Positions 1-64,000 are shown, counted from the first letter of the stretch. The stretch: DNA of 64,000 bases from a virus (IMGVR_UViG_3300031555_002904); one strand, 5' to 3'. The notes: generated by a model from the letters alone, not told the origin. Numbers and translations: made by a program.

Positions 1-558
1 ATTCGGTATTTTGCCGATGGTGGCAATTATGTCATCGACGGTCATCCTACTCTAGTCATCGGCGGAGCTTATTCTGTTGATAAGTATTGGCGGCTCATTC
101 GGGCCGGATACTCTGCGACTGATGGGGCTATTGCAGACCCTAAGAAATGCGGCTGGTTTAAAGATGAGTGTCTAACCCAAGAGGAAATGACTGCCATCCA
201 GGAGAGTAATGTTGGCAAGAAGTTTGACCTTGTGCTCACTCATACCTGTCCCTTTGATTGGGAGCCTACTGACCTCTTTCTTGGTTGCATTGACCAGACT
301 ACTGTAGATACCTCTATGGAATGGTGGATGAACCAGGTTAAGGATACTTTCGATTGGAACGTATGGCTTTTCGGTCATTTCCATGCAGACCGGATTGAGC
401 GGCCTCATGTTCAACAGTTCTATATGGATTATGAAGATTTGGATAGCATCTGGAATCGGTGGAATGACCAGTGTACTTACGCTGACGAGTGGGATTTGGA
501 TAAGAGTCCTTATATGGCTCTGTGGGATATGGAGACTGATTATGGCAAAAAATGCTGA
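1..558 (+). CDS. calcineurin-like metallophosphoesterase, C-terminal part (5' end outside window)
   Basis: Frame 1 is open from base 1; the translation ends ...WLFGHFHADRIE..., a GHxH metallophosphatase motif; stop is TGA at 556-558. Confidence 0.55.
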   Translation: MRYFADGGNYVIDGHPTLVIGGAYSVDKYWRLIRAGYSATDGAIADPKKCGWFKDECLTQEEMTAIQESNVGKKFDLVLTHTCPFDWEPTDLFLGCIDQTTVDTSMEWWMNQVKDTFDWNVWLFGHFHADRIERPHVQQFYMDYEDLDSIWNRWNDQCTYADEWDLDKSPYMALWDMETDYGKKC

Positions 559-754
559 TTTTGTTATTCCATTTCATTTTGTAATGAGAATTAAGGACAT
601 TCCAGAAGATGAATTAGAAGATTATGTAAATGACATTCAAATGGCATTACATGAAATATTCTATTCCAGCGATATAGACGACGACCATTTCGAGGTAAAA
701 ATTTGTGCTCCCGATTACGCAAAAAGTTATAAGGAGTATGTTTATGAGGATTAA
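542..754 (+). CDS. hypothetical small acidic protein
   Basis: ATG at 542 overlaps the upstream stop; 70 aa ORF in the + gene array. Confidence 0.4.
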   Translation: MAKNADFVIPFHFVMRIKDIPEDELEDYVNDIQMALHEIFYSSDIDDDHFEVKICAPDYAKSYKEYVYED

Positions 755-1001
755 AGATTATCTAATTGCCGTGGGAACTGCGGCCGCAGGTGCCTTAGCG
801 ATTACACTTCTTCTTGCTCTTCTGGCATTAATTGGCTGGCCTGTCGTTTGGGTTGTTCTTGTTGTTGTATTCTTACCTAAGACCTACTCTTGGGCAGTTG
901 AATATCGTGAGAACAGAGAACCTAACTATATTGGCTATTTAATTGAAAAAGCCGAAAATGCTTTTAAAGGCAAGTCTAAAGACAGTAAGATTGAATTTTA
1001 A
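744..1001 (+). CDS. small membrane protein
   Basis: AAGGAG at 731-736 then ATG 744; two hydrophobic helices (AITLLLALLALIGWPVVWVVLVVVFL). Confidence 0.5.
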   Translation: MRIKDYLIAVGTAAAGALAITLLLALLALIGWPVVWVVLVVVFLPKTYSWAVEYRENREPNYIGYLIEKAENAFKGKSKDSKIEF

Positions 1002-1004
1002 GTA

Positions 1005-1034
1005 AAGACCCTATGGCAACCATAGGGTCTTTAT
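1005..1034 (+). terminator. rho-independent terminator
   Basis: Hairpin aagaccctatgg/caac/ccatagggtctt followed by a T run. Confidence 0.6.
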
Positions 1035-1062
1035 TGATTTTTTATAAAAAATATGTTATAAT
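1034..1062 (+). promoter_or_regulatory. conserved phage promoter P1 (TTGATT-17-TGTTATAAT)
   Basis: -35 TTGATT 1034-1039, 17 nt A/T spacer, extended -10 TG-n-TATAAT 1057-1062, then ATATATAG; first of about 18 near-identical copies. Confidence 0.7.
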
Positions 1063-1092
1063 ATATATAGAAAGTAAAGAGAGGAGAAAGTT

Positions 1093-1278
1093 ATGAATAA
1101 GTTTTATAGCGAGATTGATAAGGCTCTCCAATCTTACGAGAATTATAAGCCTTACCACACACGCAGTATTGAATGGATTTCCAATCGAATCTCTTGGTGT
1201 TGGAAATGGCGAAAAATCACAAAGGAACAGATGGAAGAACTCTGTGATAGAGTAATCAAAGTTTTAGAAGGGGATTGA
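1093..1278 (+). CDS. hypothetical protein
   Basis: RBS GAGAGGAGAAAG then ATG; 61 aa. Confidence 0.5.
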   Translation: MNKFYSEIDKALQSYENYKPYHTRSIEWISNRISWCWKWRKITKEQMEELCDRVIKVLEGD

Positions 1279-1282
1279 TACT

Positions 1283-1423
1283 ATGATTATTAAGTACATT
1301 TGGTGTACCAGCCGTTATGATAAGCATTATCGCAAGTGGCATGAACGAACCTGGAAGGGATGGTTCTTATTCGGTTTCATTCCTCTGTATGTTACTACTG
1401 TTGAGTATTTAATTAAAGGTTAA
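1283..1423 (+). CDS. hypothetical small protein (46 aa)
   Basis: ATG overlaps the upstream stop; fills the gap before 1437. Confidence 0.3.
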   Translation: MIIKYIWCTSRYDKHYRKWHERTWKGWFLFGFIPLYVTTVEYLIKG

Positions 1424-1436
1424 AGGAGGCGACATT

Positions 1437-61414: not shown

Positions 61415-61653
61415 GATATTTGTTAAAAGCTGTTGATACTTATAGAGTGCCCGATGAGGCCGCAGTTGAAGCTTTACATGAAGAGCTTTTAAATGACCCT
61501 TGTTTTGATTTAGTTGGCTTTAGCTATAAAGTAAAGCAGATTAAGGCTAAGGGTCAAGTGGTTGAAGAATATATGGTAGTTCAAGCTACTAAGCAGTTTA
61601 CTGCAGAAAAAGACCCCGAAGATATGTTTGTTGTGTCTTATGAAAGGGGTTAA
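61411..61653 (+). CDS. hypothetical protein
   Basis: RBS AGAGGTAATAAA; 80 aa. Confidence 0.45.
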   Translation: MRYLLKAVDTYRVPDEAAVEALHEELLNDPCFDLVGFSYKVKQIKAKGQVVEEYMVVQATKQFTAEKDPEDMFVVSYERG

Positions 61654-61658
61654 TAAAA

Positions 61659-62198
61659 ATGGCTATTTTTGAAAAAGTTTCTAAATATATAGATGTGGAC
61701 ATCGCTATGCCGGTCAGAAAGACTGCACAGTCCGCAGGATATGATATGGTTGCCGCAGAGGATTATATAATTCCTTCTGTATGGCAAATGGTTGCAGAAG
61801 CTAAAGAATTATGGCCTGTAGGCGATGATGAGTTCGTAACTATGGACCTTATGTCTAAATTTACAAAAGAGACTGGTTTCAAGCCAACTCTTGTTTCTAC
61901 TGGAATGAAATGCAAACTTGACCCGACTACTTGGTTACAGTTGAGTGTTCGTAGCTCTTCTCCTCTAAAATATTGGTTAATGATGGGTAATGGTATCGGC
62001 GTTATTGATGCTGACTATTATAACAATCCCGATAATGAAGGAGAAATTTTCTTCCAGATTTATAATCTATCTCCATTTAATATTCAGATTAAAAAGGGAG
62101 AGGCCATTGGTCAGGCTATTATTCTTCCCTATGGCGTTACTGAAGATGACGTCGCAGGTGGAGAGCGCACTGGCGGTTTTGGCTCCACATCTAAGTAA
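61659..62198 (+). CDS. dut: dUTP diphosphatase
   Basis: dUTPase motifs SAGYDM, RSS, GVIDADY, GERTGGFGST. Confidence 0.8.
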   Translation: MAIFEKVSKYIDVDIAMPVRKTAQSAGYDMVAAEDYIIPSVWQMVAEAKELWPVGDDEFVTMDLMSKFTKETGFKPTLVSTGMKCKLDPTTWLQLSVRSSSPLKYWLMMGNGIGVIDADYYNNPDNEGEIFFQIYNLSPFNIQIKKGEAIGQAIILPYGVTEDDVAGGERTGGFGSTSK

Positions 62199-62683
62199 TG
62201 CGTCTTTTAGCATTAGACTAGGCAAGCCGAACAAGCGGCTGGGCCATATTTGAAGATGGTAAGCTTCTAAAATATGGTAAGTTTACTGCTGACCATTCTG
62301 ATGTTGGAGATAGACTTCACTTTATTCGGAGTAAAGTAAATCAACTCATTAATGAATATGATATTGATGAAGTTGTTTTTGAAGATATTTAGCTTCAAGG
62401 CAATGTTGCAAACAATGTTCAAACTTTTAAAGCATTAGCAGAAGTCTTTGGTGTTTTATATGAATTATTTGTAACATTAAAGATGCCTCGAACCGCAGTT
62501 CTTTCAACCGTTTGGAAATCTACTCTTGGTATTAAGGGTAAAGACCGTCCAGCCCAGAAGAAAGCCGCATAGGCTTGGGTTGAAAAAACTTATGGTGTAA
62601 AACCTACTCAAGATGAGTGTGATGCTATTTGTATTGGTGCTCACTATGTAAATAATAAAGTCGAAGTATTCGATTGGTCTTAA
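62198..62683 (+). CDS. ruvC: RuvC-family Holliday junction resolvase with 3 in-frame TAGs (62219, 62390, 62570)
   Basis: MRLLALD-[TAG]-ASRTSGWAIF matches RuvC ILGIDPG...GYAV; ...EVVFEDI-[TAG]-LQGNV...; C-terminal DECDAICIGAHY catalytic region. Confidence 0.65.
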
Positions 62684-62750
62684 CTAGATAATCCCTCTTT
62701 CACTTCTTTTATTATCCAATAGAGAAGTTGAAAGGGGGAAAACTTTTATT

Positions 62751-63221
62751 ATGGAAGCTCTTTTAGCAGAGTGGGGAACAGAAATTTTGTTCGGTCTAAT
62801 TAGTGCTATTGTAATGGGTTGGGCAAAATGGCATGGTGATAAATTAAAGAAAGAAAAACTCCAAGCCGAAGAAAATGCTCGTATTATTGCAGAACAAAAG
62901 CTTGATGAAAGAATTGGTACTCACATTGAAGTTGAATTAGAACCAATTTATCAAGAATTAGAAGATTTAAGAAAGTATTGCCGCGACAATGAGAACTTAG
63001 AGAAATCTCATATGAACTTAATTGTTGCTTCTTACCGTTTCCGTTTAATCCAATTGTGCAAAGGATTTTTACGCCAAGAATACATTACTGAATCCCAGAT
63101 GGAACAATTAATGGAATTCTATAAATTATATAAAGGCTTAGGTGGAAATGGTCAAGCTGAAACTTATTATAATAAGGCAATTGCTTTACCTTTAAAGACT
63201 GACGATGAGGTTCCTGTCTAA
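62751..63221 (+). CDS. hypothetical protein
   Basis: RBS AAAGGGGGAAAA; 156 aa. Confidence 0.45.
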   Translation: MEALLAEWGTEILFGLISAIVMGWAKWHGDKLKKEKLQAEENARIIAEQKLDERIGTHIEVELEPIYQELEDLRKYCRDNENLEKSHMNLIVASYRFRLIQLCKGFLRQEYITESQMEQLMEFYKLYKGLGGNGQAETYYNKAIALPLKTDDEVPV

Positions 63222-63299
63222 ACCATAATTTGGTGAAGTAATTTTATATTTTTACTTCACCAAATTTTTTATTAAAAAAGAGATAAAGGAGAAAAGATA

Positions 63300-63899
63300 A
63301 TGGGATGGAGTACTCATAGTGATTGGAGTTTTTCTTATTAGGGCATAGATGCTACTTATAGTAGAAATTTACTCAAATATAAAAATACTGGTTCTACACC
63401 TCAACTAATAACTGCATGCAGAATAGGTCTTGCTTCAGGTAATGGAACATACAATTAGGGAGATACTGTTACTGGATATGGATATGCATATGATGTTTAT
63501 GTAACTGTTACTGATTCTAACGGAACATCGCATACGTCCAATACAATTACTGTAAGCAATAAAACTAGCGGAGGAAACTATTATAATACGGAACAAAAAA
63601 CTTTTACATTTGGAGGAGTATATGTAGCCGCTGGGTCAACAGTAACTTTTAGATTTCATTTTGTTCGTAAATCAAATCCTACTATTGTTATTATCAGAAA
63701 CCGAGGAGATAGCTCTACTTATGGAGGTACAGTGATTAATGGTGGAGGATTAGTTCGCATTAATATTGATGGAACTGCCAATGGATGGAAGAGTGCAATA
63801 CCATATGTCAATGTTGATGGAACTGCTAATGGATGGAAAGTTGCTATTCCATATATTAACAAAGATGGTACATCTACTGGGTGGGCTATTTGCACATAA
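63300..63899 (+). CDS. tail-fibre or structural-like protein with in-frame TAGs at 63339 and 63456
   Basis: RBS AAAGGAGAAAAG; 200 codons. Threefold repeat DGTANGWKSAIPYVN / DGTANGWKVAIPYIN / DGTSTGWAIC. Gly/Thr/Asn-rich. Confidence 0.5.
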
Positions 63900-63906
63900 A
63901 AAAATA

Positions 63907-63950
63907 AAGGGTCGTATATGAATAAATCATATACGACCCTTTTTTTATTT
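63907..63950 (+). terminator. rho-independent terminator
   Basis: aagggtcgtatatga/ataaa/tcatatacgaccctt then TTTTTTATTT. Confidence 0.7.
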
Positions 63951-64000
63951 CATTTTAATTCCATTATAAATTCTATTCGACCATTTGATTATCTCGTCTC

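Follow-up and report, generated by a model that had tools for sequence, protein, structure and literature searches.

The stretch of 64,000 nucleotides (nt) from the virus IMGVR_UViG_3300031555_002904 (henceforth termed the window) belongs to a phage whose codon exchanges with related phages indicate that it reads the stop codon TAG as glutamine (genetic code 15). Very probably, the window represents the early and middle region of a jumbo phage genome of about 200 kb, in which the genes for the code change, i.e., two suppressor tRNA genes and a release factor 2 (RF2) gene, form a cluster a short way upstream, encoded by the same strand. An earlier note on this DNA had remarked that recoding machinery is missing from it; the window misses this cluster, and the lack of such genes simply reflects its boundaries. 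Positions 1–64000 refer to the window, upstream positions are given as negative window-equivalents, and downstream positions continue past 64000. In the window strain, the stretch read spans window-equivalent -27849 to 80599, complemented by some 10 kb around RF2 from relatives.

Suppressor tRNAs and a probable release factor gene upstream of the window

ARAGORN predicted no tRNA or transfer-messenger RNA genes in 1–64000, and no Rfam family reached its gathering threshold in the window. With permissive filters and E ≤ 1 over the whole window, one sub-threshold match appeared, to the trpB non-coding RNA motif (63871–63950; 33.2 bits versus a gathering score of 59, E 0.92), which is probably due to chance, and nothing tRNA-like was seen. 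At the protein level, 86 plus-strand genes were called with TAG read through, covering 95% of the window, and every product was scanned against Pfam. Neither PCRF and RF-1 nor tRNA synthetase families occurred among the 86 products, and ten long minus-strand open reading frames (ORFs) of the window gave no Pfam match whatever. GC skew is positive across the entire window, and the convincing genes all lie on the plus strand. The observations that the window contains no tRNA-like sequence and no release factor or aminoacyl-tRNA synthetase were thus reproduced. The more general statement that recoding machinery is absent holds for these three classes of genes but is too broad, as the window also encodes a YqeY-family protein, a Thg1-like enzyme, and an RNA ligase.

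Exact-protein look-ups showed the window to be 100% identical to several metagenome contigs. One of these, ena:ERZ27248306:k141_635947 (L031), reached through an 81-aa gene beside a tRNA-Cys, extends 14.66 kb upstream, with window base 1 corresponding to its position 14661; it matches the window at 100% identity over 1,867 nt directly and over 11,165 nt via L006 (same contig). ARAGORN detected on it tRNA genes in the order Tyr, Thr, Ser, tRNA(CUA), tRNA(CUA), Leu, Gly, Lys, Lys, Met, and Cys. The two tRNA(CUA) genes, here called SupA and SupB, are tandem and non-identical (L031 2960–3034 and 3035–3131; window-equivalent -11700 to -11529), run on the same strand as the window genes, and lie 11.5–11.7 kb upstream of window base 1. 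Another contig of this strain, L040, overlaps L031 by 5.4 kb and L030 by 9.1 kb, both at 100% identity, and adds 28 tRNA genes upstream of those in L031. Together, L040 and L031 define a block of 41 tRNA genes in about 19 kb that covers all 20 amino acids. The window is free of tRNA genes because all 41 found for this phage sit in this one block just outside it. The earlier note had argued that a suppressor tRNA must lie elsewhere in the genome and had proposed a tRNA scan beyond the window for a tRNA with a CTA anticodon; such a scan of the overlapping contigs reveals two. The same contigs already contradict the case of a genome without any suppressor tRNA, which had been named as a challenge to recoding.

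Judged from their sequences, both suppressor tRNAs appear functional. On the Rfam tRNA model (RF00005; gathering score 29), they reach 47.1 and 54.2 bits, and across nine distinct variants from the phage family the SupA/SupB cloverleaf shows compensatory changes in 16 of 20 pairs, while the anticodon-loop bases C32–A37 (CUCUAA) are invariant. SupA and SupB are 75% identical to one another, and SupA carries a U1–C72 mismatch. Like the tRNA-Gln(UUG/CUG) of the phage itself, both begin their acceptor stem with 5' UGGGG and carry G73, which fits glutamine identity in the light of the identity elements of Escherichia coli tRNA-Gln. Compared over their whole length with the other phage tRNAs, they show an identity of 0.67–0.70 to tRNA-Gln versus at most 0.64 to the others. 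Because this preference is only marginal, the argument for their likeness to tRNA-Gln rests on the acceptor-stem features.

Several peculiarities of the tRNA block were recorded alongside. SupB (window-equivalent -11625 to -11529) measures 97 nt. Its variable region is extended by 24 nt, which fold into a 5-bp hairpin with a 7-nt loop (CUCUGAC) that exactly matches the anticodon loop of tRNA-Gln(CUG) from this phage. This 97-nt form is identical in L030, L039, L040, and L041, and the relatives L018, L026, and L029 have 75–76-nt versions without the insertion. The tRNA-Cys(GCA) gene (L031 6173–6258; window-equivalent about -8487 to -8402) measures 86 nt and has an extended variable arm of class II type, uncommon in tRNAs for cysteine; close relatives keep this long form, and more distant ones have 74–75 nt. 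A scan of JGI metagenomes returned four contigs of relatives of 1–2.6 kb, in which tRNA-Met adjoins tRNA-Cys. Small ORFs of the PDDEXK_5 and GIY-YIG families are interspersed between the tRNA genes (L040, L029–L036, L018–L028) and vary in presence and position by strain, like homing endonucleases.

The release factor was encountered further upstream in close relatives of the window strain. The contigs L043 and L044 carry the same 128-amino-acid (aa) neighbour protein unchanged and are 95–97% identical to L040 in the shared upstream tRNA-block region; about 4.5 kb ahead of the first tRNA gene, they have a gene whose 362-aa product contains PCRF and RF-1 domains. This protein (L043 3973–5061) reaches 428.9 bits with the NCBIfam model TIGR00020 for prfB (cut-off 370), with the prfA models remaining below their cut-offs, and its translation displays the VSPFD (SPF tripeptide) and GGQ motifs. 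Its gene contains zero TAG codons and ends in TAA. By synteny with L043 and L044, the RF2 gene of the window strain would be located at about -33.0 to -31.9 kb; a tblastn search with the RF2 of the phage family over window-equivalent -27849 to 80599 returned nothing (best E 0.99). The search for prfB homologs suggested in the earlier note thus leads to near-identical relatives, about 32–33 kb upstream. No aminoacyl-tRNA synthetase was found in the window, the flanking loci, or around RF2 in the relatives (about 118 kb examined), and pyl genes were absent from all fetched loci. That recoded phages often encode RF2 or a synthetase, as had been stated, exceeds what the literature reports: in the survey of Borges et al. 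(bioRxiv 10.1101/2021.08.26.457843), TAG suppressors were detected for 40% of the TAG-recoded genomes, RF2 was confined to six Lak and two Agate genomes, and synthetases were seldom seen.

TAG as a glutamine codon

Within the window, the frame 38792–39817 comprises 341 codons with nine TAGs and zero TAA or TGA. The plus-strand gene in this frame (38825–39817), the densest TAG user of the window, encodes a 330-aa protein with a transmembrane segment, a coiled coil, and a GIY-YIG domain (Pfam, 34.5 bits), its TAGs being located at 38966, 38972, 39077, 39206, 39242, 39275, 39389, 39596, and 39626. Further TAG-bearing genes, all on the plus strand, encode a guanylate-kinase-like protein (56960–57529; four TAGs at 57017, 57083, 57137, and 57392), a RuvC-like resolvase (62198–62683; three at 62219, 62390, and 62570), a RecJ-like (DHH) exonuclease (48025–49770; two at 48172 and 48247), a PIN-PhoH ATPase (25251–26501; TAG at 26358), a dihydrofolate reductase (DHFR; 41000–41497; one at 41195), and a 199-aa protein without assigned function (63300–63899; two at 63339 and 63456) that is one protein in the ENA gene calls; several others also lack an assigned function. 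In total, 13–17 window genes carry TAG. Full-length Pfam domains, such as that of DHFR, are recovered only with read-through, which raises plus-strand coding coverage from 90.4% to 94.9%.

TAG codons are sparse and unevenly distributed. The window contains 26–35 of them, according to whether the count includes the first 15 codons of an ORF; with these codons ignored, TAG is clustered in 13 of the 86 genes (dispersion test, P ≤ 2e-4), and the other 73 are TAG-free. The ratio TAG/(TAG+CAA+CAG) amounts to 0.053 in the window genes versus 0.177, approximately threefold more, in the minus-strand tail-fibre-like genes at 64.25–80.6 kb. ORF statistics from inside the tRNA block were not used, since spurious ORFs occur there. 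Public annotations treat these codons differently. ENA/Logan gene calls for the contigs of the window translate TAG as Q, with an exact 1175-aa Q-translation on record, whereas JGI calls (L001 versus L002 tables, window-equivalent 56960–72198) fragment TAG genes and split the 1175-aa protein into six pieces; the public protein sets for this phage therefore mix fragmented and Q-translated versions.

The identity of the inserted amino acid was approached by comparing called genes of the window strain (L002) with orthologs in the relatives L037 and L038, which were reached via homologs of the window gene 62751–63221; alignments of at least 53% identity were used, and that of the 1175-aa protein (27% identity) was excluded as unreliable. 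Of the 20 sites with TAG opposite a sense codon, 18 have CAA or CAG there; at nine further sites, both sequences have TAG. All four TAGs of the guanylate-kinase-like gene are CAG or CAA in L038, and all three of the RuvC-like gene are CAA in L037. In addition, the TAG at 26358 of the PhoH gene aligns with the Q of the GD-x-T-Q-x-D motif (PDB 3b85). Alignment of DHFR and the guanylate-kinase-like and RuvC-like proteins to PDB entries placed their TAGs at non-conserved positions, which give no information on the amino acid, and a 247-aa gene of more distant relatives has one TAG opposite CAT (His), a single uninformative site. Together, the intact nine-TAG frame, the gain in coverage on read-through, and the exchange of TAG with CAA and CAG in relatives bear out the description of this virus as a TAG-recoded phage.

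Proposed mechanism and competing explanations

We propose a mechanism that follows the published model for recoded phages (Borges et al.). Early genes, including RF2 and most window genes, would be translated in the standard code of the host, and the suppressor tRNAs and RF2 would accumulate. Host enzymes would charge the suppressors with glutamine, and the extra RF2 would keep termination at TAA and TGA efficient without adding termination at TAG. Genes with TAG would then be made full length, i.e., a minority of the window genes and chiefly the late, approximately threefold TAG-denser structural genes on the minus strand downstream. Several points weigh against this picture. RF2 was read only in relatives with 95–97% identity, and the window-strain contig k141_3039360 runs 17.3 kb further upstream than the stretch read. 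A synthetase or further factors might be encoded in the rest of the genome, i.e., in some 95 kb located between 80.6 and about 168 kb and before RF2. The presumed timing of expression derives from codon distribution only, and the remaining two of the 20 TAG/sense sites show one GAT and one GAA codon (Asp and Glu). A more elaborate scenario, in which the extra arm of SupB mimics an anticodon for Gln-charging enzymes and the free-standing protein related to YqeY and the GatB tail helps to bind the suppressors, would give the lineage its own way to secure glutamine charging; we regard it as improbable.

A host that itself reads TAG as an amino acid would free the phage from any need for machinery. 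The window alone, with no suppressor tRNA, release factor, or synthetase, could be reconciled with such a host. However, the phage has two conserved tRNA(CUA) genes and its near-identical relatives have RF2, which would be pointless in a host with TAG as a sense codon, and the 73 TAG-free window genes as well as the RF2 gene avoid TAG, as expected if they are translated under the standard code. No bacterium is known in which TAG is reassigned to glutamine. Published surveys predict standard-code Firmicutes or Bacteroidetes as hosts (Borges et al., bioRxiv 10.1101/2021.08.26.457843). A recoded host, which the earlier note had offered as the alternative to machinery elsewhere in the genome, is not needed and appears highly implausible. 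It is scarcely credible that the TAG-interrupted genes are pseudogenes, or yield only truncated or low-level read-through products, with no real reassignment. The low TAG density of the window and a gain in coding density of only 4.5 percentage points, under the 10% threshold of automated screens, would agree with this view, but against it stand nine TAGs and no TAA or TGA in an intact 330-codon frame with a recognizable GIY-YIG domain, the specific exchange of TAG with CAA and CAG at 18 of 20 sites, and its conservation at nine. Moreover, essential-looking genes are affected, among them those for DHFR, PhoH, the RecJ-like protein, and 1175-aa and 808-aa structural proteins, and dedicated suppressor tRNAs are present.

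If TAG is a sense codon, the tRNA(CUA) might still insert an amino acid other than glutamine, either glutamate, through a non-discriminating glutamyl-tRNA synthetase and failed transamidation, or pyrrolysine. ARAGORN labels every CTA anticodon as tRNA-Pyl, and the TAG/GAA and TAG/GAT comparisons mentioned above point away from glutamine. Firmicutes-type hosts make Gln-tRNA through Glu-tRNA, and no glutaminyl-tRNA synthetase (GlnRS) was found in the loci examined. Against this stand the 18 of 20 substitutions to glutamine codons, the Q at the PhoH motif residue, the resemblance of the suppressor acceptor stems to phage tRNA-Gln (U1, G2–G5, G73), and the fetched loci devoid of pyl genes; for such phages, only TAG to glutamine has been reported (Borges et al., bioRxiv 10.1101/2021.08.26.457843). 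We therefore consider insertion of another amino acid very unlikely and favor glutamine inserted by phage-borne suppressors, encoded just outside the window, as the explanation for its TAG codons.

Neighboring genes and relation to known recoded phages

Some window genes may be connected to the tRNA block. The plus-strand gene 12844–13362 encodes a YqeY-family protein, a homolog of the tRNA-binding tail domain of GatB and GatE, that matches Pfam YqeY (PF09424) with 27.0 bits, equal to the cut-off of 27. The match recurs in 48 of 52 homologs. Proteins of phage relatives are 51–76% identical, and homologs of YqeY length (145–150 aa) 30–40%. A profile of the family retrieved the PDB entry 1ng6 (E 1.6e-17) and, weakly, GatB 3h0l_B and GatE 1zq1_C; the single sequence gave no PDB and no NCBIfam match, and its single-sequence AlphaFold model (predicted local distance difference test score 63.8) was not used for fold search. 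The family of this protein includes free-standing YqeY proteins as well as the YqeY/tail domains found in GatB, GatE, and Deinococcus GlnRS. In the latter enzyme, the domain raises the affinity for tRNA-Gln, only in cis (PMC1865053); the phage protein, in contrast, is free-standing, and free YqeY has no known function. The phage protein may assist in the handling of tRNAs that resemble tRNA(Gln), and any role in charging the suppressors is speculation.

A Thg1-like protein of the tRNA 5'-end 3'-5' nucleotidyl transferase family (2324–3214, plus strand; Pfam Thg1, 96.3 bits) and an RNA ligase (6427–7845, plus strand; Pfam PHA02142 OB-fold 28.9 bits and RNA_ligase 25.2 bits; NCBIfam RNA_lig_DRB0094 64.8 bits, below its cut-off) are accompanied by metallophosphoesterases and an AAA_33 kinase (1437–2177, 21093–21638, and 21635–22348). 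Together, these proteins look like a tRNA end-healing and repair set, which would fit a phage with 41 tRNAs.

As a whole, the window (1–64000, all genes on the plus strand) is a replication, nucleotide-metabolism, and nicotinamide adenine dinucleotide (NAD) salvage region of a jumbo phage. Pfam matches identify PolIII alpha, DnaB, a primase-like protein, GyrA and GyrB, an NAD-dependent ligase, RNase H, and the RecJ-like protein, furthermore NrdD and NrdG, ThyA, DHFR, and dUTPase, as well as a sigma-70 factor, the NAD-salvage cluster, vault-protein-like and flotillin-like proteins, and lysins. The NAD-salvage and ADP-ribose genes are densely packed at 11197–19690 and encode isochorismatase-like, phosphoribosyltransferase, Sir2, NAMPT, NAD synthase, NADAR, and cytidylyltransferase-like (NMNAT-like) proteins. 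An 838-aa protein (8588–11104) combines a major-vault-protein shoulder and Vault_3 repeats with a long coiled coil; it is kept across the phage family and adjoins a DUF2828 gene in relatives. At about window-equivalent -5540, many assemblies break inside a DUF2828 gene (ends of contigs L007–L010; L006 484–3896). This site is a strain-variable hot spot, where some strains carry an island with an EcoRI-like methylase and GmrSD/HNH genes and DUF2828 is either truncated or full length.

Downstream of the window, the genes change to the minus strand; they contain more TAG, and their products are large tail-fibre-like proteins of the Laminin_G type. Contigs of relatives cluster at 198–207 kb, with one of 406 kb, about twice that length, from which we infer a genome of about 200 kb. 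The lineage is widespread, with 754 homologs of one window protein. The lineage is not in the INPHARED phage collection, in which the best match of its PolIII alpha is 38% identical and the nearest cultured phages are SPbeta-like Bacillus phages, Enterococcus phages, and Phass-1. A 24-kb stretch had no megablast match among GenBank phages, and a tRNA-Cys pattern and a tail-fibre fragment, used as probes, retrieved nothing from the IMG/VR copy.

The suppressors resemble the E. coli supE-type amber suppressor, which inserts glutamine at UAG, in having a CUA anticodon, a body like that of tRNA-Gln with U1 and G73, and a 1:72 pair that is weak or mismatched. Unlike supE, they are phage-borne and exist as two diverged copies, SupA with the U1–C72 mismatch and SupB with the 24-nt extra hairpin. 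The window phage is an ordinary TAG-to-glutamine recoded jumbo phage, of a kind that is already known, from a lineage new to it. The same architecture and model have been described for TAG-recoded gut and jumbo phages (bioRxiv 10.1101/2021.08.26.457843; PMC13037316). Like the code-15 gut phages (crAss-like, Lak, and Garnet/Agate/Topaz-type clades; Borges et al.) and the recoded rumen and gut jumbo phages (PMC13037316), it uses TAG in a subset of genes, especially structural ones, keeps early genes compatible with the standard code, encodes tRNA(CUA), has no dedicated synthetase in the loci examined, and comes from rumen or gut metagenomes; RF2, read in its relatives, would be a trait in common with Lak and some Agate phages. 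It differs from known code-15 phages in its set of 41 tRNAs, its two non-identical tandem suppressors, and a TAG density so low that a screen for a 10% change in coding density would miss it, at least in this region. A widespread low-TAG lineage could accordingly be called standard-code by such screens, resulting in fragmented genes as in the JGI calls. The genes for a code change can thus be missing from 64 kb of a recoded phage; here they lie 11–33 kb away.

A further parallel is the "code change module" of the TGA-recoded Jade phages, in which a suppressor tRNA, tryptophanyl-tRNA synthetase, and RF1 are located upstream of the lysis cassette (Borges et al.). In both systems, release factor and suppressor tRNA genes are near each other, are written in the standard code, and lie upstream of recoded genes. 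Unlike the Jade module, the window phage would pair RF2 and tRNA(CUA) for TAG rather than TGA, with no synthetase found, and its block precedes the replication region, not the lysis cassette, within the stretch read. With the RF2 gene of its near-identical relatives taken into account, the recoded phages in which suppressor tRNAs and RF2 occur together gain a lineage that has an SPbeta-like polymerase and a complete tRNA set for the 20 amino acids.

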